A stretch of 64,000 nucleotides of DNA, from IMG/VR virus record IMGVR_UViG_3300015615_001160, positions 18,526 to 82,525 of that record; one strand, given 5' to 3'. Under the pieces are notes generated by a model. The model made no database searches. It was not told the origin of the DNA and saw only the letters and a list, made by a program, of their open reading frames with translations. Shown piece after piece: positions 26,181 through 58,856 of this stretch. Within the stretch, counting starts at the first letter, position 1, and every line of letters begins with the position of its first letter. Made by a program: the position numbers and the translations under genes. The stretch is from a virus. Its lineage: Duplodnaviria; Heunggongvirae; Uroviricota; Caudoviricetes.

Positions 26181-26759
26181 TTAACCCAGGAAGTGCGCCC
26201 AGTCGGCTACGCCGTGCTGATTGCGGATGAACGCCGACGCGGGTTTCTCGCGCGGAGCGACCGGGTGCTGGTGCAGGCGCAGCCCGGCCTCGTGCGGCAG
26301 GCGGTCCGCTTTGGCGGAATTCACCTCGCGGTGCGCAAGCACGCAGTTCTCCCAGTTCGTCTTGCCGCCGCGGGAGCGGGGCACGACTTGGTCGATGTTG
26401 CCCTCCTTCGGCGAAAGCTTGCGGCCAGTGTATTGGCACACGCCGCCGTCGCGCTCCCAGATGCCGCGCATCCCAAAGCGCGGGCGGCGCATCGGCACGC
26501 GGGCGTAGTTCATCGCGATGACGACCGTCGGCACGCGCACTGGGCCGCGTGCGGTGTTTACTGCGTAGTCGCACTCCCGCACCGGCAGCGTGAGCCACGC
26601 ACTCCATTTCGTCGGCACAAACGCACCCTCGGAAATATCGAGCGCCGTGGCGGCGTCGGACGCCATCATGCAAAACGCCTCCGCGGGCGTCTTCACGTGG
26701 ATCGCCTGCCAATGCCGATTCAGCACCAGCACGGTCGTTTTGTTGAGGATGTTATTCAT
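26181..26759 (-). CDS. HNH endonuclease domain protein
   Basis: 192 aa. HNH core DQVVPRSRGGKTNWENCVLAHREVNSAKADR. It is the last gene of the minus-strand RtcB block and starts with MNN at 26757-26759. Confidence 0.7.
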   Translation of the reverse strand: MNNILNKTTVLVLNRHWQAIHVKTPAEAFCMMASDAATALDISEGAFVPTKWSAWLTLPVRECDYAVNTARGPVRVPTVVIAMNYARVPMRRPRFGMRGIWERDGGVCQYTGRKLSPKEGNIDQVVPRSRGGKTNWENCVLAHREVNSAKADRLPHEAGLRLHQHPVAPREKPASAFIRNQHGVADWAHFLG

Positions 26760-26870: not shown

Positions 26871-28274
26871 TTAGTCTTCCGCGCGGTCACCCGCCGGACA
26901 CATCTTCACGAGTTTCGGGTCGAAGCGGCCGAGCACATCGACGAGGTCCGTCTGCGCCGACATCACTTGCGCGATGTCCTTGTAGACGCCCGGCACTTCG
27001 TCGAGGCCGGCGGAGAGCAGTTCCACGCCAGCGGCGGCGAGTTGTTTCTTCACCGCGCTCCACGTGAACGACTGCAATGCCTTGCTGCGGCTCATCACCC
27101 GGCCCGCGCCGTGCGACGCGCTGTGCAGCGACTCGGGCGAGCCCTTGCCGCGTACGACATAGCCCGGCGATGCCATGGAACCCGGGATAACACCCAGCAC
27201 TCCGGCGCCCGCCGGCGTCGCGCCCTTGCGGTGCACGACGACCTCGCGCTCTTCCCCATTCACGACATGCGTTTCTTTCCACGCGAAGTTGTGATGGTTT
27301 TCGATGTCGAGGATCACATGCCCACCGAGCTTTTTCGCGATGTGCCGGTGGATGAGTGCGTGGTTCGCCGCTGCGTAACGGCCCATCAAGTTCATCGCGG
27401 CCCAGTATTCCTGGCCGTCGGCGTCGTCGAGCGAGAGCCACGCGAGGTGCTTGAGTTCCTTCGGCAGGTGCTCGTGGCGGGCCATCGCGCGCTTGCTGTA
27501 GACTTCGCACACCTTCGCGCCGGTTCCGCGCGAGCCCGAGTGCGAGAGTAGCGCGAGATATTCTCCCGGCTCGAGGCCCAGGGTCTGTGCCTGCTCCGCA
27601 TCGACGGTGAACGCACCGAACTCGACGAAGTGGTTGCCACTTCCGCTCGTGCCGAGCTGCGACCACGCCTTGTCGCGCAGTTGCTTCGTCACGGGCGCCA
27701 CGGACCAGTCTTCGTCCATCACGTCGTGCTCGCGGCGCTGCTTGAACTGGCAGCCCATACCGAACCGCGTCTCGTCTTCGAGGATGTTCGCGAGCCGATC
27801 GCGCTGGCCGGCGAGGGTGCTCGCCTTGCGGTCATACACCGTCAGCTTCATGCGGCACGCGATGTCCACGCCGACGGCGTAAGGAATCACCGCGTTGTCG
27901 GTCGCGAGCACACCGCCGATCGGCAGGCCGTAGCCCACGTGCGCATCCGGCATCAACGCGCCCGCCACCGCGACCGGCAGCGCACACGCATTCGCCATTT
28001 GCTTCACCGCCTCGGCTTCGAGCCCTTCGCCCCACTGACGCCACGGCGCGAGTTCTGCGCGCGGCGTAAACGGCGGGCGATAGATCGCCCGCGCCAGCGG
28101 TGCCCGCAGCTCGTCGGCAAAGAAAGCCGTTGGATTGGCGACGATGTTGAAGATTTCGCCCTCCAGTAACGCGCCGTCATTTCCCCGCGCGATGAAGTTC
28201 TGGATGAACTCGTGCGCAACTTGGATCGGCCCGCCCATCGGCACGCCGAGGCGGATGAGGTCTTTGGTGTTCAT
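26871..28274 (-). CDS. rtcB: RtcB RNA ligase (joins 3'-phosphate/2',3'-cyclic phosphate to 5'-OH)
   Basis: RtcB family signatures MPDAHVGYGLPIGG, GSGNHF, SASHGAGR. Start chosen at MNTKDLIRLGVPMGG (ATG 28272-28274). An in-frame upstream ATG at 28307 would add 11 aa. Confidence 0.9.
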   Translation of the reverse strand: MNTKDLIRLGVPMGGPIQVAHEFIQNFIARGNDGALLEGEIFNIVANPTAFFADELRAPLARAIYRPPFTPRAELAPWRQWGEGLEAEAVKQMANACALPVAVAGALMPDAHVGYGLPIGGVLATDNAVIPYAVGVDIACRMKLTVYDRKASTLAGQRDRLANILEDETRFGMGCQFKQRREHDVMDEDWSVAPVTKQLRDKAWSQLGTSGSGNHFVEFGAFTVDAEQAQTLGLEPGEYLALLSHSGSRGTGAKVCEVYSKRAMARHEHLPKELKHLAWLSLDDADGQEYWAAMNLMGRYAAANHALIHRHIAKKLGGHVILDIENHHNFAWKETHVVNGEEREVVVHRKGATPAGAGVLGVIPGSMASPGYVVRGKGSPESLHSASHGAGRVMSRSKALQSFTWSAVKKQLAAAGVELLSAGLDEVPGVYKDIAQVMSAQTDLVDVLGRFDPKLVKMCPAGDRAED

Positions 28275-28408
28275 AGTGAGTTGGTTTGAAAATGTGCGTC
28301 GCCGCACGCGGACACAATGCGAGTGCGCAGCGGTGTTTGTTCTTTTTGTCGGAAAGTCTGCAGCCGGGAAGGGTTCATGCCCTCCCCGGCTGTACCACTA
28401 CTAGTTCC

Positions 28409-29218
28409 TCAATCGAGGAAGGCGACGTTCGCCATGGTGCGGGTGGTGTTCTCGGTGTTCATCCAGACTTGGTGCCAGCCATGCAGTGTGATGGTGGCGT
28501 GGTCCGGGTGCCGTATCGTGCCGCGCGCATAGACTTGCGCGTCACGTGTTCGGCGTTGCCAGCCCCAGTGGTTGGCTTCTGGCTGCTCCACGATGAGCTG
28601 CTTGTAGTGCTGGACTGTGATCCCATTCGGGAAACGCGCGCAGACATACACTTGCTCACCGCCAGTGCGGAACAGCTCTGCCACCCAGTGCGGCTTGCCA
28701 CCACCACCGCGGCTGATCGGCTCGTGACGATGCACGAGCTTCCCATCCACGTGCAGGCCTGGCACTGGCACGAAGAACCATTCACCCTGACGGATGAAGG
28801 CTCGGTTGTGACGCCGCACGCGTTGCCCGGGGTTCAAGCGAGCCTGATCCGCGGCTTCGCGAACCTTCGGCGGCAGCAGGGCGAGCTTCGCCTGCAATAC
28901 CGTCGAGGCACCGCCTGGCACCGCGGCCACGAACCATTCCCGCTCATCGTGACCACAGAGGAAGCGATCATTCGCTGCCGGTGTCTTGACGAGCAGAAGG
29001 AGGTGTCGGTCGTGTCGGTCGCACTGGAGCACATCCGCATCGAGGTGCGTTTCGCGCTGGGCGCTCAACTGCATCTCGAAAACCTGACCGCGTTTATCGG
29101 CGGCCAGGTCGATGGCATAGTCCGCACGTCGGCGGCTCCACGGTAGATTTTCTGGACGAACGATCCGGAACCGCGCGCCCATGTGGGCGAACTGGTTCGC
29201 GATCGATTTAGAGTTCAT
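28409..29218 (-). CDS. Hypothetical protein (about 270 aa) between rtcB and the nucleotidyltransferase gene
   Basis: Start chosen at MNSKSIANQF (29218). The longer ORF running to 29434 would overrun the tRNA-Lys-like gene and a hairpin. Confidence 0.5.
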   Translation of the reverse strand: MNSKSIANQFAHMGARFRIVRPENLPWSRRRADYAIDLAADKRGQVFEMQLSAQRETHLDADVLQCDRHDRHLLLLVKTPAANDRFLCGHDEREWFVAAVPGGASTVLQAKLALLPPKVREAADQARLNPGQRVRRHNRAFIRQGEWFFVPVPGLHVDGKLVHRHEPISRGGGGKPHWVAELFRTGGEQVYVCARFPNGITVQHYKQLIVEQPEANHWGWQRRTRDAQVYARGTIRHPDHATITLHGWHQVWMNTENTTRTMANVAFLD

Positions 29219-29230
29219 ATCTTGGAATTG

Positions 29231-29252
29231 GGTCGCGCGGCTTGGCGCGACC
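29231..29252. promoter_or_regulatory. Perfect 8-bp stem hairpin just upstream of the hypothetical gene start
   Basis: ggtcgcgc ggcttg gcgcgacc, followed on the plus strand by gattgcgttttctttcc. Confidence 0.3.
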
Positions 29253-29367
29253 GATTGCGTTTTCTTTCCGGGCCTTGCGAGCCCGAGACGACTTGATGCG
29301 GTAGTGGACAGACATTGGTTTTGATGGTGGTGGGTTGGTGAATTCGTGGCGTTGAAGACCACGATGT

Positions 29368-29439
29368 GAAAAAGTGAACCCGTAGGGACTTGCACCCTCC
29401 TCAGCCGCTTAAGAGGCGGCGGCTTCGCTCTCAAAGCTT
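29368..29439 (-). tRNA. tRNA-Lys(CTT)-like gene; non-canonical, no encoded CCA
   Basis: Minus-strand sense gaacccg aa gctt..aagc c gccgc ctcttaa gcggc .. gaggg tgcaagt cccta cgggttc a. Perfect 7-bp acceptor and 5-bp anticodon stem; loop cT-CTT-aa. T-loop is TGCAAGT (G55) and position 8 is A. A paralog with a TTT anticodon lies at 32518-32589. Confidence 0.55.
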
Positions 29440-29472
29440 CGGGTTCTTAAATTAAAGCAGTGGGGAGCGATG

Positions 29473-29513
29473 GCCCCGCCGGTGTTGCCCGATTGCAGTC
29501 ACCGGCGGGGCGT
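29473..29513 (-). terminator. Strong hairpin immediately after the nucleotidyltransferase stop codon (minus strand)
   Basis: 12-bp perfect GC-rich stem gccccgccggtg / caccggcggggc. It begins 8 nt past the TGA at 29521-29523. Confidence 0.5.
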
Positions 29514-29520
29514 CCTCCTC

Positions 29521-30297
29521 TCAAGCGGAGAGCGCGTAACGGCGGAAGAAGCTATTCAGCTCCTCGACGCTGCCTGCGGCGTCGTCGCGCTCGTTGAGCG
29601 CTTCGAGTCTTGGCAGTTCGGCCTCGATGAAGCGCGAGAGCACTTCGACCGGCGGCGCGACCGCCAGTTCGTCGCCGGCCTGTTTGCGCGCGATGAGTTC
29701 ATCGAGCGCGGCGCGCACGTCGGATTCTTCGAGTACACTCTCGACGAGTTGTGCGAAGAGCATGGGCACCTGGCCGAGTTGGCGCTCGATCCAGCGGCAC
29801 GCTAGCAGCGGTCGGAAGACGTAGAGATACTTCTTCAGGCTCACCATCTCGCGCCCGCGGAGGTAGTCGCGCCAGTTGCCGAAGGCCATGTGCAGGTAGT
29901 GGGCGAAGCAGCGCCGCTGCGAATAGAATTCCTCCGCGAGCGCGCCAAACTCGGCACTGAAGACCGGCTCGTGGCGATACACGATCGGTGACTTCAGCCA
30001 CTCGAGCAGCGGCGGGTTGCTCTTGCGGAGCAGGCGCAACGCCTTGCGCAGCTCCCAACCGCTGACGTCGAGATCGTCGGCGAGTGGGCGCTCGATCACG
30101 TCGCGCCGATCCTCGACCGAGAGATACCAGTCGCGCCGATGCACGTAGAGAAAGCGCACGTCGTAGTCGCTGTCGCGCGAGGCAAAGCCCCACGCACGGC
30201 TGCCGCTCTCGCACGCGAAGAGCACGCGGACGTTTCGCTCGGCCTCGACCTGAGCGAGCGCGTCGCGGACGCGCTGGAAAACTTCGTTCCCATTCAT
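29521..30297 (-). CDS. Predicted nucleotidyltransferase (Pol-beta/MNT superfamily) in the RtcB neighbourhood
   Basis: 258 aa. GS...D.D motif in VLFACESGSRAWGFASRDSDYDVRFLYV. A helical C-terminal domain follows. Confidence 0.65.
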   Translation of the reverse strand: MNGNEVFQRVRDALAQVEAERNVRVLFACESGSRAWGFASRDSDYDVRFLYVHRRDWYLSVEDRRDVIERPLADDLDVSGWELRKALRLLRKSNPPLLEWLKSPIVYRHEPVFSAEFGALAEEFYSQRRCFAHYLHMAFGNWRDYLRGREMVSLKKYLYVFRPLLACRWIERQLGQVPMLFAQLVESVLEESDVRAALDELIARKQAGDELAVAPPVEVLSRFIEAELPRLEALNERDDAAGSVEELNSFFRRYALSA

Positions 30298-30372: not shown

Positions 30373-30900
30373 TTAGATGGGGAGCCGCACTTTTGCGTAG
30401 AGCAGGCCGTCGATGAATTCATCATCGCGGAAGTAGTATGCGCGCAATCGGCCTTCGTGCGTGTAGCCGGCCTTCTCCAGCACCCGAGCGGAAGCCGGGT
30501 TGCGTGCGAAGACATGGGCGTGCAACCGCACGAGGTTTAGCTCTCGGAAGGCCCATTCCGTCATCGCGTCGAGCGCTTCCGTGGCGATCCCGCGGCCCCA
30601 GAGTGTCTCGCCGAGCCAGTAGCCGATTTCCGCGGTATGCTGGCGCGCGGTTACACCGCTGGGGTTCACTTCGACGCCGATGCCACCGACGATCTGGTCG
30701 TCGATGGCGATGCCGAAGTTGGTTTCCGGATCCTGTTTAGTGGCAAAGTCGATCCACCATTCCGCATTCTGCAGCGAATAGGGATGGGGGATGTGTAACA
30801 TATTGCGCGCAACGCTGTAGCTGCCGATGTGCGTGGAAATCGACTCGGCGTCGCCGGGACGAAAGGAACGAATGGTGGATTTGGAGAGGGTGAGTTGCAT
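30373..30900 (-). CDS. GNAT family N-acetyltransferase (RimJ/RimL-like)
   Basis: 175 aa. IGYWLGETLWGRGIATEALDAMTEWAF ... ARNPASARVLEKAGYTHEGRLR matches Acetyltransf_3-type. Confidence 0.75.
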   Translation of the reverse strand: MQLTLSKSTIRSFRPGDAESISTHIGSYSVARNMLHIPHPYSLQNAEWWIDFATKQDPETNFGIAIDDQIVGGIGVEVNPSGVTARQHTAEIGYWLGETLWGRGIATEALDAMTEWAFRELNLVRLHAHVFARNPASARVLEKAGYTHEGRLRAYYFRDDEFIDGLLYAKVRLPI

Positions 30901-30930
30901 GGGGTGGATGGTGAAAGTTTCAGCCCGAAA

Positions 30931-30958
30931 CCCCGGTGGAGACAGAGATCCACCGGGG
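30931..30958. repeat. Palindromic (REP-like) element, copy 1
   Basis: ccccggtgga gacagaga tccaccgggg: a 10-bp perfect stem. It is near-identical in design to copy 2 at 31394. Confidence 0.5.
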
Positions 30959-31393
30959 TTGCGAGGTTACCGGATTGCAGCGCGAACCCGGTGTGCAAGT
31001 TCGGTCGGGCATGAAGTTCGGCGCCGGTGGAAGGGGTGATTTTTGGATTAGTACGATGGTTCGCGTGTTGATGGACGGATCATCAGCGTATCTCTCAGCA
31101 GGGCTCCGGGTCCGGCTCGCTCGCTCAGCAGAATCCGAAGCGGCACGCCCGCCAGCGATGTGCTGTGGGGCAACCGGTCGAACGGAGTTCCTTTGCGAGT
31201 ATGTCTCGCGATAGGCTGAGATCTCAGTCGAACAGCTCCGAGGAGGAAAACCCCGATGAGGATGACGCCATGACCCAGAATGGCTGGGTCGGGCATGGTG
31301 GGTGGGTGGGTTGGAAAATGAGCAAGCCCGCCCGATTGATCTCGGAAGGGATCGAGCGCGGAGAGCCGTGTGGGCGTTCGCGCGGAGGATCAC

Positions 31394-31458
31394 CCCGGCG
31401 GAGCGAGTTCTCCGCCGGGGCTTGTTCCTCCCTCGCAATTTTTTGTTTCACGTTTCGT
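31394..31458 (+). terminator. Palindromic element copy 2 plus a T-tract; a plus-strand rho-independent terminator-like structure
   Basis: ccccggcgga gcgagttc tccgccgggg followed by cttgttcctccctcgcaattttttgtttc. Confidence 0.4.
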
Positions 31459-32245
31459 CCGTCTCCGTTGCGGTTGGCTTGACGCCGCGCGTGTGGAGAG
31501 CGGGGAGCAGGGTCGACAGGTCGTTCATCACGAACGTCTGGCCTGCGGTGGACGCTTCGAGCGTTTGCAGGAAGCGGAGGGTGGCGAGTGCGGGCTGGCC
31601 TTCGATGAGGCGCGCGGCATTGGCGAGGTTGCGCAGCGCGGCGGATTCGGCGCGGGCGCGTTCGAGCGCGGCCTGGCCTTCCTGCTTCGCCTTGAGCACT
31701 TCGCTGAAGGCCTTGCGCAGTTCGCCCGGCAGCATCACATCGCGCACGTCGGCCGCGTGGACTTGCACGCCGACAGCTTCCGCTTGTGGCGCGATGAGTT
31801 CGCGGAGTTGCGCGCCGATGGCGACACGCTGCGTGAGCAGGGCTTCCATCGGCACTCCGGCAACGACGGTGCGAACGGCGGCCTGCGTGGCGTTGTAAAT
31901 GTGGGCCGCGTAGTTGTCCGCAGCCTGCACGCTCTTCGCCGCATCCACGATCTGCGTGGTGAGCACGACGCTGAGCTTCACGCCGACGTTGTCGGCGCTG
32001 AGCACTTCCTGGCCCGCGACCTGGAGGAGCGTCTTGCGGATGTCCACGGCGACGAGGCGGTAGTTGCGGCCCCAGCGGATGTGACGGCCCGCTGGCAGCG
32101 TGCTCACGAGCTGGCCTTCGTGGAAGAGCAGGCCCGCGTAGCCTTCGGTGACGATGAACTCGTGGTGGTAGCGAGTGCACGCAATATTAGTCACGAGCAA
32201 ACCGGCGCCAAGGAGAGCGACGATGAGAATATCTTGGGTGGTCAT
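31448..32245 (-). CDS. Band-7 / SPFH (stomatin-prohibitin) domain membrane protein
   Basis: 265 aa with an N-terminal TM segment (ILIVALLGAGLLVTNIA) followed by an SPFH domain. Band-7 proteins are recurrent partners of RtcB-type RNA repair operons. Confidence 0.8.
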   Translation of the reverse strand: MTTQDILIVALLGAGLLVTNIACTRYHHEFIVTEGYAGLLFHEGQLVSTLPAGRHIRWGRNYRLVAVDIRKTLLQVAGQEVLSADNVGVKLSVVLTTQIVDAAKSVQAADNYAAHIYNATQAAVRTVVAGVPMEALLTQRVAIGAQLRELIAPQAEAVGVQVHAADVRDVMLPGELRKAFSEVLKAKQEGQAALERARAESAALRNLANAARLIEGQPALATLRFLQTLEASTAGQTFVMNDLSTLLPALHTRGVKPTATETDET

Positions 32246-32278
32246 AGTGTGTGTTGGTTGGTGGTGGAAAGATTGCGA

Positions 32279-32292
32279 TCCGTGGCGGTGGC
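32279..32292. promoter_or_regulatory. Perfect 14-bp palindrome gcggtggccaccgc upstream of the band-7 start; a candidate operator
   Basis: Seen directly. It lies about 35-47 nt upstream of the minus-strand start at 32245. Confidence 0.3.
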
Positions 32293-32391
32293 CACCGCTT
32301 GTTCGCGGGCAGCGTGGCGTGAGCCGGCTGCGCAGGACGAAGTCGCGACTGCCTCTCGAGCAAGCTCGGGGCGGGTCACCGTCACGGATCG

Positions 32392-32420
32392 GTGGATGGA
32401 TGGGATTCGAACCCAGTCGG
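32392..32420 (-). other. tRNA 3'-end-like fragment with a canonical T-arm (GGGTTCGAATCCC) and no matching 5' acceptor strand
   Basis: Minus sense ...gactgggttcgaatcccatccatcca. No complementary acceptor strand was found within 120 nt. It may be an att-type remnant or a decayed unit. Confidence 0.3.
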
Positions 32421-32517
32421 CGGTGAGCCGATGACCAGCCGCCGGATGGTCGATGTGCAGGACCAGTCGCGGCGATGCCGCCTGGCTGCGGGTGTATTTT
32501 TCCGGCGGAAGAGGAAA

Positions 32518-32589
32518 TGAACCCGTAGGGACTTGCACCCTCCTCAGCCGCTTAAAAGGCGGCGGCTTCGCTCTCAAAGCTTCGGGTTC
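32518..32589 (-). tRNA. tRNA-Lys(TTT)-like; paralog of the 29368 unit
   Basis: Identical to the 29368 unit except the anticodon loop is cT-TTT-aa. Confidence 0.55.
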
Positions 32590-32594
32590 GGAAA

Positions 32595-32672
32595 TGGATA
32601 GTCGCGGCAGGATTTGCACCCGCACTGGCTGCGTTCTCGACGCAGTGCCTCTTCTCGTTGGGCTACGCGACC
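32595..32672 (-). tRNA. tRNA-like, Leu anticodon GAG, class-I architecture
   Basis: Acceptor ggtcgcg/cgcgact; anticodon stem ctgcg/cgcag with loop tcGAGaa (C33); T-arm gcggg TGCAAAT cctgc. Confidence 0.45.
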
Positions 32673-32753
32673 GTCGGTGATTTTGGAAATAGTCCTCCGG
32701 CATTGGGTGGCCGAAGGCCTGGAGCAAGTCTCGCGAAGCGAGACGCGTGGAAA

Positions 32754-32828
32754 GGCTCCCGTGGTGGGACTCGCACCCACTAGGACTCGTGTGAAAGACG
32801 AGACGCTCGGCTCTTTGCATTCACGGGC
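32754..32828 (-). tRNA. tRNA-Glu(TTC)-like
   Basis: Anticodon stem ctcgt/acgag with loop cT-TTC-ac; T-arm gtggg TGCGAGT cccac. Confidence 0.45.
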
Positions 32829-32840
32829 ATTTGCTGAAAG

Positions 32841-32931
32841 TGGCGGAACGCGGAGGGCATGCTCCCCAACCCGCAACGCGGATCGATCTCCTTAGCACGG
32901 AGTCCCGGCACGCTCGTCCGGTTCACGTTCC
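32841..32931 (-). tRNA. tRNA-Ser(GCT)-like, class II with a long variable arm
   Basis: Acceptor ggaacgt/gcgttcc + G + CCA; anticodon loop gT-GCT-aa; variable arm ccgc gtt gcgg; T-loop AGCATGC. Confidence 0.5.
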
Positions 32932-32937
32932 ACATCG

Positions 32938-33011
32938 TGCCCGCGGCGAGATTTGCACTCGCACTGTCCGAGGTTTGAGCTCGGTGGCTCTGCTCGTTGG
33001 CCTACGCGGGC
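32938..33011 (-). tRNA. tRNA-like, Leu anticodon CAA, class I
   Basis: Acceptor gcccgcg/cgcgggc perfect; anticodon stem ccgag/ctcgg with loop cT-CAA-ac; T-arm gcgag TGCAAAT ctcgc. Confidence 0.5.
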
Positions 33012-33022
33012 GTGGAAAAAAA

Positions 33023-33094
33023 TGCTCCCGGTCGGAGTCGCACCGACACTGCGCGGGGTTTAAGTCCGCTGCCTCTGCGTTGGGCTACGGGAGC
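33023..33094 (-). tRNA. tRNA-like, Leu anticodon TAA, class I
   Basis: Acceptor gctcccg/cgggagc perfect; loop cT-TAA-ac; T-arm gtcgg TGCGACT ccgac. Confidence 0.45.
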
Positions 33095-33103
33095 TTTGAA
33101 AAA

Positions 33104-33990
33104 TGGGACTGCGGGTTGAGACTAAACCCACAGGCATCATCTCCTTCGCGCGGATTATTCGAGGCTTGCGGCCTCTATTCCCGGCTTGTCCTCGGCGACT
33201 GACCCGAAAGTCACATCGACGAGCGATGACACGATTGCCTTTGTTAACGAGGTGGCATTTCCCCGTAGATGGTCAGCTACTCTACCTCCGTCCTACCGCC
33301 AGCCTTGCGGGCTGTGAGAGGCGCGACCCTCGACGTGCGGACTCGGGTAAACTTCGCGGGCCTTGCGGGCCGTGGAAGTCTCCATTGCCTTGCGGCTGAA
33401 GAATTAAATCGTTTTCGCTGACGACCGGCGGCGTCTTTGCATTTTTTTGGCGATGCAGGATTTCTCCTGCGACCTCCGGCTTTCGAAGCCGACGCTCTGT
33501 TCTGAGCTAATCGATAACCCACCACGATGTGCGCCGCCTGTCGTGCCGAATCCTTTTGGGACTCGATATGCGACACACCGTGTGACTTTCCCTTGCGGGT
33601 ACTCATCGTGTCCTGGCGATCGCGTCCGCCTCCTTGCCTTTTGGGCTCGGCAGCGTCCGCTTCCGCGCGACATGCAGCAGGCGCCTCGTTTGCGGCTTGG
33701 CGTCTACTGCTCCCCTTGTTCCCTCAACACTGGACGTTTTGCTGGAAAGGCACGCCTTGCGAAGGGGCGTTCCTGCTCCTACGGAGTTACCCTCGGAACA
33801 GTTTCCCTTTCCCGTCGTCATGTATACCTCGGCCGCATTTGACTGCGACAAGGCTATGGGACCTGGGTTTGCTTGAATGTCCTCGAGTGAACGAGGCGCG
33901 GGCGTGTGGGCCGTTTCCGCTTTTGGCCGTCTCGCGACGGTTTATCTTTCATCCCTTGCGGGACCTGGAGATCAAGCTCCCCAGTTTTTA
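33104..33990 (-). ncRNA. About 880-bp non-coding segment inside the array with a recurring CCTTGCGGG motif; candidate large structured RNA and/or decayed tRNA units
   Basis: No convincing ORF and no regular spacers. CCTTGCGG(G) occurs at 33304, 33361, 33385, 33590, 33764 and 33953. At least one tRNA-like unit (33448-33516) is embedded. Confidence 0.3.
33448..33516 (-). tRNA. tRNA-like unit with a good D-arm (gctc/gagc) and a T-loop-like anticodon loop ttCGAaa
   Basis: The acceptor is imperfect and the assignment is uncertain. Confidence 0.25.
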
Positions 33991-34018
33991 AATAGTGAAA
34001 TGGGTGATAGTAAGAAAG

Positions 34019-34095
34019 TGGTCCCGGCGGCAGGAGTTGCACCCGCACTGGCTCCGGTCTGAGCGGAGTGTCTCTGCTTGTTGGACTACGCCGGG
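34019..34095 (-). tRNA. tRNA-like, Leu anticodon CAG, class I
   Basis: Acceptor cccggcg/cgccggg perfect + A + CCA; anticodon stem ctccg/cggag with loop cT-CAG-ac; T-arm gcggg TGCAACT cctgc. Confidence 0.5.
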
Positions 34096-34104
34096 AAAAA
34101 GGAG

Positions 34105-34180
34105 TGGTGCTCTCGGCAGGAGTTTCGCCCGCAACCTCCGCGTTCGAAGCGCGGCACTCTAGACATTGAGCTACGAGAGC
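34105..34180 (-). tRNA. tRNA-Arg(TCG)-like
   Basis: Acceptor gctctcg/cgagagc; D-stem gctc/gagt; anticodon stem ccgcg/cgcgg with loop cT-TCG-aa; CCA encoded. Confidence 0.5.
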
Positions 34181-34191
34181 ATGGATGGAAA

Positions 34192-34268
34192 TGGCTGCCC
34201 CGGATGGATTCGCGCCATCAACCTCCCGGTTCAGAGCCGGGCGCTCTCGCTGTTTGAGCTACAGGGCA
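34192..34268 (-). tRNA. tRNA-Gln(CTG)-like
   Basis: D-stem gctc/gagc; anticodon stem cccgg/ccggg with loop cT-CTG-aa; T-arm gatgg CGCGAAT ccatc; disc G + CCA. Confidence 0.55.
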
Positions 34269-34273
34269 ACATG

Positions 34274-34345
34274 ATCCGCCAACCGGAGTTGCACCGGTCT
34301 CTCGCCGATACCAGCGGCGTGCGTCGCTCACAACGCTTTGGCGGA
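34274..34345 (-). tRNA. tRNA-Thr(GGT)-like
   Basis: Acceptor tccgcca/tggcgga perfect; D-stem gcgt/acgc; anticodon stem cgccg/cggcg with loop cT-GGT-at; T-arm accgg TGCAACT ccggt. Confidence 0.5.
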
Positions 34346-34355
34346 GTTTGAAATG

Positions 34356-34429
34356 ATCAGGCACCTCGGTGCTGCCCCGAGTATCTCGCCGATCCGAACG
34401 GCGCGGATTGCTGTCTTCCTCGTGCCTGA
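34356..34429 (-). tRNA. tRNA-Pro(CGG)-like
   Basis: Acceptor tcaggca/tgcctga perfect; anticodon stem cgccg/cggcg with loop tT-CGG-at; T-arm ctcgg GGCAGCA ccgag. Confidence 0.5.
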
Positions 34430-34431
34430 AT

Positions 34432-34572
34432 GAAATAACTGGAGCCACGGGGAATGCTCGCGCGGCAGCGCTTCGACACGAGTCGTGGAGCGCTGGCTGC
34501 ATAGCGGCAGGAGCCGCAATCGCACCCCGATCTGCGCAATGCCAATGCGTCGTCTGGCTATTGGACTATGGC
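34432..34572 (-). ncRNA. About 140-nt structured repeat. It has a nested-hairpin 5' half and a tRNA-like 3' half (possible Ala GGC loop). It is a paralog of the element at 35940-36080
   Basis: The ggagcgctggctgcat and caatcgcacc blocks are shared with the 35940 copy. There is a nested hairpin cagcgct...cgac acga gtcg...agcgctg. Confidence 0.3.
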
Positions 34573-34579
34573 CCCGACA

Positions 34580-34655
34580 TGGACGCGCGCCCCGGACTCG
34601 CACCGGGTAATTCGGTTTTGCAGACCGATGGTTCGACGGCTTTGCCTTGCGCGCG
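34580..34655 (-). tRNA. tRNA-Cys(GCA)-like
   Basis: Acceptor cgcgcgc/gcgcgcg; anticodon stem tcggt/accga with loop cT-GCA-aa; T-arm cccgg TGCGAGT ccggg; T + CCA. Confidence 0.5.
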
Positions 34656-34667
34656 TTTTTTTGTGAT

Positions 34668-34743
34668 GGGGGTGACCGTCGGGATTCGCACCCGAATCTT
34701 CTGGTTCACGGCCAGAAACTCTGACTCTTGAGCTACGGCCACA
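34668..34743 (-). tRNA. tRNA-His(GTG)-like
   Basis: Acceptor gtggccg/cggtcac (one G.U); anticodon stem tctgg/ccaga with loop cc-GTG-aa (C33); T-arm tcggg TGCGAAT cccga. Confidence 0.4.
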
Positions 34744-34766
34744 GCTTCTTCCTGTGTTGTGGAAAG

Positions 34767-34843
34767 TGGATCCTCCGGCCGGCGCTGCCCCGGCATGGTC
34801 TTCTTTACGAGAGAAGTGCATTGCTGGCCTCTGCCACGGAGGA
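34767..34843 (-). tRNA. tRNA-Thr(CGT)-like
   Basis: Acceptor tcctccg/cggagga perfect; anticodon stem cttct/agaag with loop cT-CGT-aa; T-arm gccgg GGCAGCG ccggc; T + CCA. Confidence 0.5.
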
Positions 34844-34853
34844 ACGGGATGAA

Positions 34854-34930
34854 TGGTGCTCCCGCGAGGACTTGCACCTCGAGCTTCCGCCTTCGCAGGG
34901 CAGCGTGCAGGACTCTTACACTTCGGGAGC
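34854..34930 (-). tRNA. tRNA-Arg(GCG)-like
   Basis: Acceptor gctcccg/cgggagc; anticodon stem ctgcc/ggcgg with loop cT-GCG-aa; T-arm cgagg TGCAAGT cctcg; A + CCA. Confidence 0.5.
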
Positions 34931-34939
34931 TAATGAAAA

Positions 34940-35014
34940 TGGTGCGCCATGCCGGTGCCGCCCCGGCGCTGTGTCTTTGGAAGAGACGCGTGCTCGCTGT
35001 TACACCAATGACGC
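34940..35014 (-). tRNA. tRNA-Gly(TCC)-like
   Basis: Acceptor gcgtcat/atggcgc; anticodon stem cgtct/agaca with loop cT-TCC-aa; T-arm gccgg GGCGGCA ccggc; A + CCA. Confidence 0.5.
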
Positions 35015-35024
35015 TTTGGAAAAA

Positions 35025-35099
35025 TGGTGGCTGCTTCCGGTATCGCGCCGGACTCCCCTCGGCTTCAGCGAGGTGCTAATCTATCTCAGCTACACAGCC
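35025..35099 (-). tRNA. tRNA-Phe(GAA)-like
   Basis: D-stem gctg/tagc; anticodon stem cctcg/cgagg with loop cT-GAA-gc; T-arm tccgg CGCGATA ccgga; A + CCA. Confidence 0.5.
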
Positions 35100-35153
35100 G
35101 TTCGACAGGCTCACGGCCTGCGGCCCTTCGACGAAGTTTCGTCTTTGGGCAAA
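35100..35153. other. Short non-tRNA spacer with two small hairpins (ggcc tgc ggcc; gacga agtt tcgtc followed by tttggg)
   Basis: It does not fold as a cloverleaf. It may be an intra-array processing or terminator-like element. Confidence 0.3.
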
Positions 35154-35154
35154 G

Positions 35155-35228
35155 TGGTCCCTCCGCGCGGTATCGCGCCGCGGTCTCTCGCTTATCGGGC
35201 GAGGGCTCTGCTTTTGAGCTACGGAGGG
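35155..35228 (-). tRNA. tRNA-Ile(GAT)-like
   Basis: Acceptor ccctccg/cggaggg perfect; D-arm gctc aaaagca gagc; anticodon stem ctcgc/gcgag with loop cc-GAT-aa (C33); T-arm cgcgg CGCGATA ccgcg; A + CCA. Confidence 0.5.
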
Positions 35229-35237
35229 TTTTGGAAA

Positions 35238-35311
35238 TGGTCGCTCGAGGTGGTAACGCTCCACCGTTTGTCGGATGTCGGCCGGCCGTTCTGCTTTTGA
35301 ACTATCGAGCG
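35238..35311 (-). tRNA. tRNA-Val(GAC)-like
   Basis: Acceptor cgctcga/tcgagcg + A + CCA; D-arm gttc aaaagca gaac; loop cc-GAC-at; T-arm ggtgg AGCGTTA ccacc. Paralog of the next unit, with compensatory stem changes. Confidence 0.5.
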
Positions 35312-35322
35312 ATGCGAAAGAA

Positions 35323-35396
35323 TGGTCGCCCGACGTGGTAACGCTCCACGGTCTTCCGGATGTGAGCCGGCCGTTCTCCTTTTGAACTATCAGGCG
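35323..35396 (-). tRNA. tRNA-Val(CAC)-like
   Basis: Acceptor cgcctga/tcgggcg; T-stem cgtgg/ccacg (compensatory relative to ggtgg/ccacc in the previous unit); loop cT-CAC-at. Confidence 0.5.
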
Positions 35397-35409
35397 AAAA
35401 TGAAAATGA

Positions 35410-35481
35410 TACCCGCGCCCGGTAATGCTCCGGGGTTTTCTGATGAAGAATCAGCCGTGCTGACGATTGCACCATGCGGGT
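35410..35481 (-). tRNA. tRNA-like unit, anticodon region ambiguous (possibly CTT)
   Basis: D-stem gtgc/gcac perfect; T-arm cccgg AGCATTA ccggg. The anticodon stem and loop can be drawn two ways (ttCTTca with a 4-bp stem, or a 5-nt loop). Confidence 0.3.
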
Positions 35482-35489
35482 TTTTGAAA

Positions 35490-35564
35490 TGGCTCCTCCC
35501 CTTGGCATCGCACCAAGCTCACACCGCTTAACAGGCGGGCCGCACACTCTGTGCGTTGAGAGGA
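35490..35564 (-). tRNA. tRNA-Asn(GTT)-like
   Basis: Acceptor tcctctc/gggagga; D-stem cgca/tgcg; loop cT-GTT-aa; T-arm cttgg TGCGATG ccaag; G + CCA. Confidence 0.45.
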
Positions 35565-35575
35565 ATGTGTCGTTT

Positions 35576-35650
35576 TACTCCCGGCAGGAGTTGCACCTGC
35601 GTAGTTCCATTTAGAAGATGGATGCCTATGTACTGCTCGGCCACGGGAGC
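35576..35650 (-). tRNA. tRNA-Arg(TCT)-like
   Basis: Anticodon stem tccat/atgga perfect with loop cT-TCT-aa; T-arm gcagg TGCAACT cctgc; no CCA. Confidence 0.45.
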
Positions 35651-35661
35651 GTGGATAGAAA

Positions 35662-35736
35662 GGGTCGCGCGCCTCGGTGCTGCCCCGAGTGTCTCCTCGT
35701 CCCAAGCGAGGCGGGTTGCTGTCTCCCTCGCGCGCG
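35662..35736 (-). tRNA. tRNA-Pro(TGG)-like
   Basis: Acceptor cgcgcgc/gcgcgcg; anticodon stem cctcg/cgagg with loop cT-TGG-ga; T-arm ctcgg GGCAGCA ccgag. Confidence 0.45.
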
Positions 35737-35759
35737 TCACGGTGTCGTGTCGTGTGAAA

Positions 35760-35836
35760 TGGCGGCCTGTGCGGGCTTTGCTCCCGCGCCCTTCCGCTCG
35801 ACAGGCGGCTGCTCTTCGTGGCTGAGCTAACAGGCC
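35760..35836 (-). tRNA. tRNA-Asp(GTC)-like
   Basis: Acceptor ggcctgt/acaggcc perfect; D-stem gctc/gagc; loop cT-GTC-ga; T-arm gcggg AGCAAAG cccgc; G + CCA. Confidence 0.5.
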
Positions 35837-35846
35837 ATGGTGAAAT

Positions 35847-35935
35847 TGGTGGGTTGTGTCGGTAATGCTCCGACGCTGGTCCGGCTGGACATCCGCTTTA
35901 CAGGCGGCTCGCGATCTTTACGTGACTAACAACCC
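35847..35935 (-). tRNA. tRNA-Tyr(GTA)-like, class II
   Basis: Acceptor gggttgt/acaaccc perfect + A + CCA; loop cT-GTA-aa; variable-arm hairpin gtcc agcc ggac; T-arm gtcgg AGCATTA ccgac. Confidence 0.5.
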
Positions 35936-35939
35936 GAAA

Positions 35940-36160
35940 TGGTTGCGGGACGTGGAATGCGTGGCGCGGTAGCGCCGTTGCTGGACGACGCGGAGCGCTG
36001 GCTGCATGGACGCCGGAGCGTCAATCGCACCACGATACGAGGGCGTATGAAACTCTCTTGGTTTTGCCGCTCCGGCGGCTATGCGAAGTGCGCTCCGCGT
36101 CCATGGTGTGAACGTGCTTGCGCGCGAGTGCATTCAACCTTCCCGCGATTGAATGGTGAA
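35940..36160 (-). ncRNA. Structured repeat(s) not resolved as tRNA; includes the paralog of the 34432 element
   Basis: Shares ggagcgctggctgcat...caatcgcacc with 34432-34572. Contains hairpins ggcgc ggta gcgcc and gcgctccg/cggagcgc. Confidence 0.3.
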
Positions 36161-36161
36161 A

Positions 36162-36236
36162 TGGTGGACCGCCACGGCTTTGCACCGTGCTCTTCCGCTT
36201 GCGAGGCGAATGACCTCCTGAATGATCGAGCGGCCC
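36162..36236 (-). tRNA. tRNA-Ala(CGC)-like
   Basis: Acceptor gggccgc/gcggtcc; anticodon stem ttcgc/gcgga with loop cT-CGC-aa; T-arm cacgg TGCAAAG ccgtg; A + CCA. Confidence 0.45.
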
Positions 36237-36244
36237 AGGAAAAT

Positions 36245-36321
36245 TGGTAGCGGGGGCCGGATTTGAACCGGCGAATTGACGGCTTATGAGGCCGTTGCCT
36301 TAACCACTTGGCGACCCCGCA
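36245..36321 (-). tRNA. tRNA-Met(CAT); the most canonical unit (GG in the D-loop, TTCAAAT T-loop), with a 1:72 mismatch (initiator-like)
   Basis: gcggggtcgccaaGTGGTTAAggca acggc cT-CAT-aa gccgt ... gccgg TTCAAAT ccggc ccccgct A CCA. Confidence 0.6.
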
Positions 36322-36333
36322 GTCTGTGGAAAG

Positions 36334-36408
36334 TGGCACAGCGTCTCGGTGCTGCCCCGAGCCCGCGGAGTTTTGGAGACTCTGCTGCGCGAGCTGGCGC
36401 CCGCTGTG
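36334..36408 (-). tRNA. tRNA-like unit (acceptor and T-arm clear; body unresolved)
   Basis: Acceptor cacagcg/cgctgtg; T-arm ctcgg GGCAGCA ccgag. Confidence 0.3.
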
Positions 36409-36426
36409 TTTCACGATTGGAAAAAT

Positions 36427-36500
36427 TGGTGCGGTCAGCCGGACTTGCACCGGCATCCTCTGATTGGCACTCAGACATCCTTCTCTTGAACGATGACCGC
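36427..36500 (-). tRNA. tRNA-Gly(GCC)-like
   Basis: Acceptor gcggtca/tgaccgc perfect + A + CCA; anticodon stem tctga/tcaga with loop gT-GCC-aa; T-arm gccgg TGCAAGT ccggc. Confidence 0.5.
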
Positions 36501-44310: not shown

Positions 44311-44961
44311 ATGAGCAGCTCGAAAACGCCTGTCGTCCTCCTAGTCAGAGTATCCACAGTTCGGCAAGAGACCTCACGCCAGATTTCGGAGTTGGAGGCT
44401 TACGCTGCCAGCAAGGGCTACGAGGTCGTCGAACTGTGCAAGGAGACGATCTCGGGCCGGGCTGACGAGGACGACCGCCACGGGTTGAAGCGAGCCGAAG
44501 CACTCGCCCGCGCTGGAGCGATCAAGAAAGTCCTCGTCCACGAGGTTTCCCGTTTGGCCCGGCGGAACAGCATCACACATCGGTTCGTTGAGGTGTTGGA
44601 GGAATGCGGAGTTTCGCTCTACTGGCACGCGCAGGGGATTGAAACCCTCCTGCCGAGCGGCAAGCGAAACCCAGCAGCGGGCATCATGCTCGCGCTGCTC
44701 GCCGAAATGGCGCGCGGGGAGGTTGAGACGCTGCGGGAGCGGATCAAGTCCGGGTTGGCCGAAGCTCGGCGCAAAGGGGTGAGGCTGGGCAGGCCGGAGG
44801 GCACATCGCTCGACCGGGACATCTTCCTTCAAAAGCACAAGGACATCGCACGATGGCTCAAGGCTGGTCAGTCGATCCGCAACGCTGCCAAGATCACGGG
44901 GAAGGGTATCTCGACGGTGCAGCGCGTGAAGACGGCGCTCGCCGAGCATGCATGCGCATAG
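44311..44961 (+). CDS. Small serine recombinase (resolvase/invertase family)
   Basis: N-terminal VVLLVRVSTVRQ with the catalytic Ser, and a C-terminal HTH. Confidence 0.8.
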   Translation: MSSSKTPVVLLVRVSTVRQETSRQISELEAYAASKGYEVVELCKETISGRADEDDRHGLKRAEALARAGAIKKVLVHEVSRLARRNSITHRFVEVLEECGVSLYWHAQGIETLLPSGKRNPAAGIMLALLAEMARGEVETLRERIKSGLAEARRKGVRLGRPEGTSLDRDIFLQKHKDIARWLKAGQSIRNAAKITGKGISTVQRVKTALAEHACA

Positions 44962-45455
44962 CGATGGGAACAAACCTTGAACTACCTAACTGGACAGCGG
45001 ATGCAGGCGGAAGAGAGCGATGGCTGGCTTGGATCGAGTCTCAGACCAAGCGGTGCTATCGTCGAGCAAAGGAGTGGGTAGCTCGATGCGACTCGAATAG
45101 ATCGTTACCCACGCGCTCCGAGTGGAGAGCAGCAATTACCAAGGCAGTGCGTGAGTCGGATGGGGTGGCATTTTTTTCTCGGCTACCGCTCTCGCTCGGG
45201 ACGGAACGAACCAACACTCATGCGCTCTGGCCGTCGGTCGATCACTGCGAGCACCCTACTGTGGCAGCCGTCGTGATCGAAACGCGGCTCATAAACGACA
45301 TGAAGACGATCCTGTCGCAGACGGAATTCCGTGAGGTGATTGCTCACCTCGCCGTGACTCTTCAAATCCAGCCGCAGCAACTACCGTCCGACTGGAAGAG
45401 CAACAGAAGCTTTGCGAGAGAACAGATCACTGACGAGCCACCGCTCCCTGCCTGA
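44952..45455 (+). CDS. Hypothetical protein
   Basis: ORF starting MRIAMGTNLELPNWT, overlapping the recombinase stop. Confidence 0.35.
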   Translation: MRIAMGTNLELPNWTADAGGRERWLAWIESQTKRCYRRAKEWVARCDSNRSLPTRSEWRAAITKAVRESDGVAFFSRLPLSLGTERTNTHALWPSVDHCEHPTVAAVVIETRLINDMKTILSQTEFREVIAHLAVTLQIQPQQLPSDWKSNRSFAREQITDEPPLPA

Positions 45456-45466
45456 GTCTCTGGAGG

Positions 45467-46240
45467 TCAATTCAGCACCGCGACTCCCAGCCGGGCCGCC
45501 ATTTCGGCGACGAATGCTGCCATTTCGGCGGGAACGCTCGACCGCCATGCAGACAAATGTTCCGACAAGGTTTGCCCGGTAGTTCGCTTGCCGAGGCGTA
45601 GAAAAGCGAGAGACTTCCACCCGGAGGGTTTTTCCTCGAAGAGGGGGAGCAGTTCCATCGCGACGATGAAGTTTCTGTCCCGAAGGATCGAATCCAGCCG
45701 CATCGCTGGTTCGTTATCTGACAGCCAATCCCCGAAGACCTTTCCATTTCTGCTGTGCTCGGGCTTCGCGATGAGGTTCGCCACGTATGCCCACATTCGG
45801 GGAGCGATGCCCACACACTCCTCCCATGGCGGCTCTTCCCTCCATGATGTGGCCAATTTTCGCATGGCGAAAAGAGCTGCGAGTTCGCAGAGACTCTCTT
45901 CCAGCCACATGTTGGGGTGCTTCCCGCGCGGCTTAGAGGCCGAATCATCCGTGTGGGTTGTGAGGACGTGGCAGAACTCGTGACCGAATTGGTAGGCAAG
46001 TTGCAGCCAGTCGGAATCTCGGCTTTTGATTAGGACTTGAGCATGACCTGCCCCGCTGTGTGCGTCCACACAGCGGGGGCCGTAGTCGCTGCGGATCACG
46101 TCAATCGGCAGCACCCCTATCCCTGCGCAGTGCTTCCAGATTTCAAAAGCGGTTGACTGGCAGGTCAAATGCACCCGTTCGGACGGGGACGTGCCCCAAT
46201 CGCCGGGCAGGACGTTGAAGTTTAGTGTTGGCGCGGTCAT
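45467..46240 (-). CDS. HExxH-motif protein; putative zinc metallopeptidase
   Basis: AYQFGHEFCHVL. Confidence 0.4.
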   Translation of the reverse strand: MTAPTLNFNVLPGDWGTSPSERVHLTCQSTAFEIWKHCAGIGVLPIDVIRSDYGPRCVDAHSGAGHAQVLIKSRDSDWLQLAYQFGHEFCHVLTTHTDDSASKPRGKHPNMWLEESLCELAALFAMRKLATSWREEPPWEECVGIAPRMWAYVANLIAKPEHSRNGKVFGDWLSDNEPAMRLDSILRDRNFIVAMELLPLFEEKPSGWKSLAFLRLGKRTTGQTLSEHLSAWRSSVPAEMAAFVAEMAARLGVAVLN

Positions 46241-46372
46241 GAGATTGCGAGGCTGGATCGGGTGGCGGAGCTGGCATCCGATTCTAGCCCCTCGGACTGA
46301 TGTGTATTTGTTCCCTTATCAGAACAAAACCTTGTCGTTTCGCTCAGTGGTAGATATTACGCGCTGAGTCCT

Positions 46373-47632: not shown

Positions 47633-47690
47633 ACGCCGCGCGAGACTGGCTGTTTTGCTGCCGCTTCTTGATTCGCCTCCCCGATGTAAG

Positions 47691-48578: not shown

Positions 48579-48658
48579 GAACTGGTCGAGTGAGTGCGTC
48601 GTCGAACCGTCGCAGCGTGGCCGCAGCGTGCCCTTGAATCGTTTTGCATCGTCACGCG

Positions 48659-49660: not shown

Positions 49661-49701
49661 TCCATGTAAGAACAAGAAATGCGGAGCAAGAATGTGACGA
49701 T

Positions 49702-50061
49702 TTAAGCCGCCGCTGCGCTCTCGGTCAGACAAGGACGCAGCGCTGGCTTCCGGGTGGCAGGAGCGTTCTTTTCTGCCCAGTGCTTCGTGATTGCTTTGGT
49801 TGCTTTGGAAAGCCACTCGGCGCTTTGGGCTATTCCTTCCACGTGGACCGCCGCGAAATACTTGGGCGCGTTGGCGGCTGGGCTACCTAAGGGTTTGAGC
49901 AGTCCTGCCCGGTTCAGGATTGGAATGTCGTGCGGCAGGAAGCCGAGCAAGAAGGCTGTCTGCTCTACGTTGAGACGCGCTGGCAACCTCGTGGCGTTCA
50001 ACACGAATTGCGGAGGCAGGGACTGCGCGGATGGCGAATGCGCAGGTGGATTGAGATTCAT
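49702..50061 (-). CDS. Excisionase/AlpA-like helix-turn-helix DNA-binding protein
   Basis: A small HTH protein immediately downstream of the integrase on the same strand. Confidence 0.45.
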   Translation of the reverse strand: MNLNPPAHSPSAQSLPPQFVLNATRLPARLNVEQTAFLLGFLPHDIPILNRAGLLKPLGSPAANAPKYFAAVHVEGIAQSAEWLSKATKAITKHWAEKNAPATRKPALRPCLTESAAAA

Positions 50062-51844: not shown

Positions 51845-51910
51845 TGATGCGCGAAGTGGCGCAGATGTTGATTAGTTGGCCGACCAGATCGCCCGGACTT
51901 TCTTTCCCGA

Positions 51911-55240: not shown

Positions 55241-55246
55241 TTCCCC

Positions 55247-55903: not shown

Positions 55904-55912
55904 GACGACTCG

Positions 55913-58853: not shown

Positions 58854-58856
58854 CCC

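Follow-up and report, generated by a model that had tools for sequence, protein, structure and literature searches.

A tRNA-Lys(CUU) gene within the RNA-repair operon beside a long tRNA array of a Chthoniobacter-like verrucomicrobium

Introduction

How does a tRNA gene come to lie among the genes of an RNA-repair operon, and what could it do there? The question is raised by a 64,000-nt stretch of DNA (the window, to which all coordinates refer unless a contig is named), in which the original prediction, made from the sequence alone, had placed a tRNA-Lys(CTT)-like gene between a nucleotidyltransferase gene and rtcB, with a TTT twin at the edge of a tRNA array, and had connected both with the anticodon nucleases that target tRNA-Lys. 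The general logic of setting tRNA supply and RtcB/RlaP against such nucleases is supported by the literature (PMC7824862, PMC10264068, PMC12776372, PMC8421152). Phage tRNAs together with RtcB/RlaP are regarded as counter-measures to anticodon nucleases (PMC7824862, PMC10264068, PMC11464382), and phage tRNAs rescue translation from tRNA-targeting defence, of which tRNA-Lys is a repeated target (PMC10264068, PMC11464382, PMC12409363). RlaP adds one to two nucleotides to damaged RNA 3' ends (PMC12776372), and it has been proposed to restore the wobble nucleotide taken out by RloC-type nucleases (PMC12776372, PMC7824862). Moreover, long tRNA arrays spread horizontally, have a patchy distribution and HNH and rtcB genes as neighbours, and are normally silent and induced together with rtcB when translation is stressed; in Anabaena, 23 of the 26 array tRNAs are aminoacylated in vivo (PMC8421152).

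The tRNA-Lys(CTT) gene and its family

The tRNA-Lys(CTT) gene is genuine (Table 1). When the whole window was searched with ARAGORN, it was called at 29374/29375-29446 on the minus strand as one of 15 tRNA genes, and the Rfam tRNA model RF00005 gave it 37.1 bits (E 2.5e-6) when the interval 29150-29600 was scanned with permissive filters, the gathering score of the model being 29 bits. It is not among the 15 tRNAs of the default Rfam scan of the whole window, which is a filter effect in view of this score. The gene foreseen in the original prediction therefore exists on the minus strand, but the interval given for it (29368-29439) lies about 7 nt off and covers 65 of its 72 nt. The minimum-free-energy fold is a cloverleaf (-31.2 kcal/mol, z = -2.4) with the 7/4/5/5-bp stems of RF00005, and sensitive Rfam scans found no RNA family other than tRNA at the locus.

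The bases are less regular than the fold. Judged by U8, G18-G19 and U54-U55-C56, it is not a canonical bacterial elongator tRNA, since it has A8, A18 and G55; the D-loop is UGAGAGCG (A18-G19), the T-loop is UGCAAGU, and the T stem contains a G49.A65 mismatch. The anticodon loop is CUCUUAA, the discriminator is A73, and CCA is not encoded. LysRS recognises an identity set made up of an NUU anticodon with U35 and U36, A37 and the discriminator A73. All of these bases are present in Lys(CTT), and they are invariant in the family described below, in which position 34 of the anticodon varies.

A covariance model built from three copies of the Lys tRNA detected orthologues above 80 bits in 20 genome loci, all of them upstream of and co-oriented with the gene for a 269-aa protein, and more distant ones in L030, L077, L036 and L006; every orthologue at a genome locus has the anticodon TTT. 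Pairing of the cloverleaf reaches 96.9% in 23 family members, with compensatory changes at 14 of the 21 pairs; none of 500 shuffles attained this covariation, and slid controls had at most 4 of 21. Lys(CTT) is therefore not a chance match, and comparison within the family points clearly to purifying selection on the cloverleaf. A8, A9, A18-G19, the anticodon loop apart from base 34, G55-C56 and A73 are invariant in the 23 members.

Gene order of the repair operon

Read along the minus strand, the order is an array of about 20 tRNA genes ending with Lys(TTT), an RNA of about 240 nt, SPFH, orfX, GNAT, RlaP, a hairpin, Lys(CTT), the 269-aa gene, RtcB and HNH (Table 1). Of the neighbours of Lys(CTT) named in the original prediction, the nucleotidyltransferase is RlaP, and rtcB is preceded by the 269-aa gene. 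The two Lys genes had also been thought to flank the RtcB operon, but both are upstream of rtcB, where they bracket SPFH-orfX-GNAT-RlaP. According to DNA comparison, the block homologous to that of relatives covers about 26.18-37.25 kb on the minus strand and is found in diverse genomic contexts; GC falls from 0.67 to about 0.60 at the cassette. In relatives the hairpin after RlaP is followed by a U-tract and is terminator-like, and in the window it is followed by the tRNA instead. No sigma-70-like promoter was found in 26.0-37.5 kb, and hence none near Lys(CTT), with a scan that may not suit the phylum.

Table 1. Coordinates of the array, the repair operon and their RNA features in the window
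Feature	Position	Strand	Basis
HNH endonuclease	26181..26759	-	family match; usual neighbour of long tRNA arrays (PMC8421152)
RtcB RNA ligase	26871..28307	-	E 3.5e-87
Orphan 269-aa protein (hyp)	28409..29218	-	true extent of a 341-aa ORF; homologue alignment
Structured leader of hyp	29219..29345	-	invariant CCAATG block and two hairpins with compensatory changes
81-nt direct repeat	29372..29452 and 32515..32595	.	repeat comparison
tRNA-Lys(CUU) gene	29375..29446	-	ARAGORN; RF00005, 37.1 bits; cloverleaf MFE; family covariation
GC-rich hairpin just after the RlaP stop codon	29469..29517	-	conserved in relatives with compensatory changes
RlaP (PF10127), RNA-ligase-associated Pol-beta nucleotidyltransferase	29521..30297	-	E 5.7e-92
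GNAT acetyltransferase	30373..30900	-	family match
orfX, 172-aa ORF, candidate gene	30920..31438	-	no family match
SPFH/Band-7 protein	31448..32245	-	E 2.2e-30
Conserved structured ncRNA of about 240 nt upstream of SPFH	32262..32500	-	canonical T-arm GGGTTCGAATCCC; comparison with relatives
tRNA-Lys(UUU) twin, final gene of the tRNA array	32518..32589	-	ARAGORN; Rfam; alignment
Long array of about 20 co-oriented tRNA genes, most A18/G55	32518..36500	-	ARAGORN, Rfam, covariance model

The synteny of array, Lys-type tRNA, GNAT (in part of the loci), orphan protein, RtcB and HNH is kept in at least 20 verrucomicrobial loci, always co-oriented, which bears out the link between a Lys tRNA and the RtcB/RlaP repair genes that the original prediction had drawn. 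In most of the loci no other tRNA gene separates the Lys tRNA from the 269-aa gene: the two are 94-600 nt apart, or GNAT alone stands between them. This distance is 94-170 nt in L001, L013 and L038, and 156 nt for the CTT copy of the window. In the Chthoniobacter-like group (L003-L007), SPFH and/or RlaP are placed between the Lys tRNA and the 269-aa gene, and the spacer from RlaP to the latter measures 185-228 nt without a tRNA, compared with 302 nt in the window. The arrangement of array and repair operon is a variant of known cassettes.

The orphan protein and its leader

An ORF of 341 aa (28409-29434) overlaps tRNA-Lys(CTT). Its long form is an artefact, as judged from its homologues: the protein that starts at 29218 has 5,422 of them, nearly all of the best 120 are about 268 aa long, and in 44 aligned homologues the first residue is an invariant Met (MN..IA.QF..MGARF). 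One protein on record is 100% identical over 269 aa. The trimming of the ORF to a start at 29218, which the original prediction had advised, is thus confirmed. The best matches are in Chthoniobacter flavus Ellin428 (78%) and other Verrucomicrobiota, and the protein has no match in Pfam, NCBIfam, PADLOC or PHROG, nor does its structural model (pLDDT 86, confident) match a fold in the PDB. C88, H72, H177, H237, D239 and H240 are among its invariant residues. The family (window and L091-L130) adjoins or sits inside tRNA arrays in Verrucomicrobia, is a lone gene in Planctomycetes, and is found inside the tRNA arrays of huge IMG/VR phage contigs of up to 530 kb, this last occurrence being apparently unreported. 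As for the leader, a small ORF of 37 aa starting from the CCAATG block was considered and rejected, because a 31-nt insertion in relatives breaks its frame and the conservation fits the two hairpins.

A copy of the last tRNA of the array

The TTT twin lies at the array edge as originally predicted, at 32517/32518-32589 on the minus strand (38.7 bits in the default Rfam scan, and called by ARAGORN), and the aligned 72-nt tRNAs differ solely at anticodon position 34. The base after the discriminator differs as well, and the identity of the twins is given as 72/73. Each of the two genes is contained in one copy of the 81-nt repeat, and the repeats bracket the 3.1-kb SPFH-orfX-GNAT-RlaP segment. 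Lys(UUU) is the terminal member of a mobile array of about 20 tRNA genes, and this array context is the key one; Lys(CTT), at 3.07 kb past the array end and within a protein-coding operon, stands outside the array. Because a tRNA is lacking between RlaP and the 269-aa gene in the five closest relatives, the CTT copy is better described as a lineage-specific duplicate than as a conserved component of the operon, and the comparison of these sequences suggests that it most likely arose recently and locally from the terminal tRNA-Lys(UUU). The copy was inserted between RlaP and the orphan gene, with a change of the wobble base 34 from U to C, and it re-creates the adjacency of Lys tRNA and 269-aa gene that is common elsewhere.

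Among the loci compared, Lys(CTT) in this arrangement occurs in this genome only. Scanning of metagenomes for CTT versions of the Lys tRNA yielded three contigs (L083, L084 and L085), in which CTT is at the array position, and the U34/C34 switch is therefore recurrent. In L083, the match of the Lys(CTT)-type tRNA at 720-860 (minus strand) to the 73-position model spans 141 nt, which indicates an insertion of about 68 nt in the T-loop region. In addition, the nucleotide in which the twins differ is the one that RloC excises and RlaP would re-add, which is a coincidence and not evidence.

The tRNA array and its elbow

Like the L-arrays described in 2021, the array is a co-oriented run of tRNA genes that adjoins HNH and RNA-processing genes and is horizontally distributed; it shares with them the number of about 20 co-oriented tRNA genes, the HNH and rtcB neighbours, the patchy horizontal spread, and short tRNA-Leu genes without the long variable arm (PMC8421152). 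It differs from them in being directly fused at its end to the repair genes, and in that a copy of the Lys tRNA, its anticodon switched, has entered the operon. With the Anabaena array (L090, pCC7120delta 49.5-55.4 kb) it even shares the succession of Leu(gag) and Lys(ttt), across two phyla. Normal bacterial tRNA-Leu has a long variable arm. In the verrucomicrobial and Anabaena arrays the tRNA-Leu genes measure 72-78 nt and lack it.

To our knowledge, G18 and U55 or pseudouridine-55 are near-universal in tRNAs. About 80% of the array tRNAs, both Lys copies included, have A18/G55 instead of G18/U55, the typical loops being AACAGCA with UGCRANU as opposed to AACGGCA with UUCRANU. Among clustered tRNAs (a cluster being four or more tRNAs on one strand within 1 kb), 325 of 405 have G55. 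In the tRNAs parsed by ARAGORN from the window and L001-L088, G55 goes with a D-loop lacking GG in 391 cases and with GG in 29, while T55 goes with GG in 109 and without it in 5 (Fisher's p 6e-79, a value inflated by relatedness). Positions 54 and 58 appear to covary too (R1-model alignment, 150 best matches). The few flanking tRNAs of apparent housekeeping type, which are on the opposite strand or are Leu tRNAs of 82-85 nt, have TTC T-loops, as do all 27 tRNAs of an acidobacterial array and 23 of 24 tRNAs of the Anabaena array, which are likewise canonical; in phage arrays T55 outnumbers G55 by 414 to 13. A link between the orphan protein and the G55 elbow was rejected, since these canonical phage arrays carry the protein. 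A full-text literature search for the A18/G55 combination returned nothing relevant, and this elbow in array tRNAs is apparently unreported. It is conceivable, though we regard it as doubtful, that the array is a structurally 'orthogonal' backup set which would evade tRNA-targeting toxins or enzymes recognising the elbow or D-loop, the junction Lys tRNA being the one tied closest to the repair proteins.

Two further observations concern the array. A GOLLD RNA (RF02032, 165 bits, E 1e-44) is located at 33113-33583 on the minus strand between Leu(cag) and Leu(taa), with a tRNA embedded in it at 33447-33516. GOLLD was rejected as a regular partner of such arrays, for it is absent from nine related loci and is part of a 919-nt insertion (33095-34013) specific to this array. 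The tRNA-Arg(tcg) that ARAGORN called at 34175-34250 on the plus strand overlaps two minus-strand tRNAs and is probably a mirror-image false call.

What the Lys(CTT) tRNA may do

We consider it probable, with moderate confidence, that Lys(CTT) is an added isoacceptor in a backup-and-repair cassette, which would supply AAG decoding under stress or in the presence of ribotoxins. The tRNA would be co-transcribed with the orphan-protein/RtcB/HNH unit, excised by RNase P and RNase Z, provided with CCA by a host enzyme, and charged by LysRS, for which U35, U36 and A73 are present. It would then read AAG, the strongly preferred lysine codon of the genome (AAG outnumbers AAA by 278 to 86 across 13 window genes, and by 71 to 3 in the giant gene). 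With both lysine isoacceptors the cassette could serve as a backup when ribotoxins or translational stress deplete the housekeeping tRNAs, and RlaP and RtcB would mend the tRNAs that have been cleaved. PrrC-type nucleases prefer a modified U34, which a C34 anticodon does not have.

Several facts speak against a backup role. The score is low for a bacterial tRNA, U8, G18 and U55 are missing, the T stem has its G.A mismatch and CCA is not encoded; only this genome has the CTT copy in such an arrangement; and the window ORFs tested include no anticodon nuclease. In fact, 20 window ORFs were compared with PADLOC, where the matches were type III R-M, HKD+Snf2 and PDC-S31 only and none was to a PrrC/RloC-type nuclease, so that the anticodon-nuclease theme of the original prediction agrees with the logic of the literature and finds no nuclease among these ORFs. 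The contest of PrrC with Pnk/Rnl1 in phage T4 and the phage tRNAs that escape defence are similar in having tRNA-Lys as the target and variant tRNAs plus an RNA ligase as the counter-measure. However, no nuclease was found here, the ligase is RtcB and not Rnl1, the setting is a bacterial genomic island, and the variation lies at the wobble base and the elbow, unlike the anticodon loop or stem variation of the defence-escaping phage tRNAs.

One alternative is that Lys(CTT) is a neutral scar of a very recent duplication or recombination, without a function of its own and with the T-to-C change as a chance mutation; the 81-nt repeats would then be traces of a rearrangement by which the SPFH-orfX-GNAT-RlaP segment was moved or can be lost. 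The missing of the CTT copy from the five closest relatives and from the same position in all other loci agrees with this, as does the fact that the direct repeats bracket a four-gene block variably present among relatives, and insertions, duplications and deletions are common in long tRNA arrays (PMC8421152). However, the sole difference hits the wobble base exactly, and it turns the anticodon into the other one for Lys, which matches the preferred codon, and the same switch is seen in the three other contigs. Furthermore, the bracketed block contains no recombinase, and both repeats hold full-length tRNAs, unlike the partial 3' copy typical of attachment-site duplications. We therefore consider a mere scar unlikely.

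If Lys(CTT) does act as a backup isoacceptor, the locus would be a compact natural 'tRNA insurance' module, in which spare tRNAs are combined with a ligase, a nucleotidyltransferase that restores RNA ends, a Band-7 scaffold and its RNA, and an array-associated protein that is uncharacterised. Twins that differ in the wobble base only would offer a clean handle on whether array tRNAs are selected for decoding or for nuclease evasion. Of the features described here, the elbow variant of the array tRNAs and the orphan protein most deserve further study. The covariation of A18 and G55 over hundreds of tRNAs represents a natural experiment on an almost universal tertiary pair and could inform the engineering of orthogonal tRNAs, and an orphan family of 268 aa with more than 5,000 homologues gains a testable tie to tRNA biology.

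The RNA beside the Band-7 gene

Burroughs and Aravind reportedly predicted in 2016 repair systems made up of Band-7/SPFH, a 'b7a-tRNA', RtcB and RlaP. The RNA upstream of SPFH in the window (32262-32500) has a 16-bp long-range helix with compensatory changes, and in five sequences 19 of its 56 predicted pairs are compensatory; the relatives are at L003 1680-1990, L006 4340-4600, L007 5700-6000 and L087 1820-2170(-). In 10 of 16 SPFH loci it is present again, 137-230 nt upstream of SPFH, and the L029 copy is recognised as a tRNA of 41.5 bits whose acceptor stem is shortened. It belongs to no Rfam family. The link of Band-7, tRNA-like RNA and RtcB is published, and these systems are described in 10.1101/312249. 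The RNA at 32262-32500 is probably this published, unvalidated 'b7a-tRNA'. The same designation was rejected for Lys(CTT), since it adjoins RlaP and the orphan gene and a separate RNA sits beside SPFH. The window thus agrees with the Band-7/b7a-tRNA/RtcB/RlaP systems in its co-oriented Band-7, RlaP and RtcB genes and in the tRNA-like ncRNA beside the Band-7 gene, and differs from them in that Lys(CTT) is an anticodon-bearing array tRNA, while the Band-7-linked RNA is separate, about 240 nt long and provided with a canonical TTCGA T-arm.

It is against this background that Lys(CTT) RNA could be supposed not to decode but to serve the repair machinery, in the shape of a tRNA, as a cofactor, decoy or regulator, for example as an anticodon-nuclease bait, a primer for RlaP/RtcB or a punctuation of the operon mRNA for RNase P, with YrlA Y RNA and Ro60 or b7a-tRNA and Band-7 as analogues. 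The position of Lys(CTT) within the repair operon, directly upstream of the array-associated orphan protein, and its elbow with A8, A18 and G55 could be read in this way; tRNA-like RNAs beside RtcB are an established theme (10.1101/312249), and sponge and non-canonical roles of array tRNAs have been raised for L-arrays (PMC8421152). But we hold such a role to be rather improbable, because the anticodon loop is invariant and canonical throughout, the nucleotides of Lys identity are retained, the sole difference of the twins swaps one Lys anticodon for the other as selection for decoding would yield, and the RNA upstream of SPFH is the better Band-7-associated tRNA-like candidate. The Salmonella rsr-yrlBA-rtcBA operon, with Ro60 and the tRNA-mimicking Y RNA YrlA, also encodes a tRNA-shaped RNA beside rtcB; the cassette differs from it in having no Ro60/Rsr gene, and Lys(CTT) has a full anticodon arm. 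Rfam, at gathering or E-value thresholds, gave no match to a Y RNA, and there is no TROVE-domain protein among the cassette genes.

The wider window and phage-like relatives

The window is from a Chthoniobacter-like verrucomicrobium and itself looks chromosomal; no phage structural genes were found in it. That the cassette is the property of a phage or prophage, whose tRNA would serve the phage against tRNA-targeting defence of the host and not the bacterium, appears very improbable, for even though near-identical arrays with Lys(TTT), RlaP and RtcB occur in IMG/VR contigs, the array of one of them (L088) adjoins a terminase large subunit and an endolysin-like M15 peptidase, and homologues of the orphan protein lie inside huge-phage tRNA arrays, the cassette has no phage structural genes around it, it is flanked by a giant adhesin to one side and, to the other, by an invertase, an integrase, type III R-M and HKD+Snf2, the operon is located among housekeeping genes in complete bacterial chromosomes, and cassette, array and orphan protein have no match in 50,697 sequenced phages. 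In L088 (an IMG/VR contig) the same array, with an RlaP of 91% amino-acid identity, is at 7498-10150, and the terminase and peptidase beside it indicate that the cassette also travels in phage-like elements.

As for the flanks, the left one is a single ORF of 8,595 aa on the plus strand (54-25841, GC 0.67), which is giant adhesin-like with PATR autotransporter-passenger repeats and a PA14 domain. To the right, 44311-61886 is island-like and contains a serine invertase (44311-44961), a PADLOC PDC-S31-like gene (47691-48854), a tyrosine integrase (50262-51470), HKD+Snf2 (51911-55240), a PLD nuclease (55913-56974), and the type III genes Mod (56808-58853) and Res (58857-61886). Genes of no assigned family are also present on this side of the cassette, beside the invertase, the integrase, HKD+Snf2 and the type III R-M genes.
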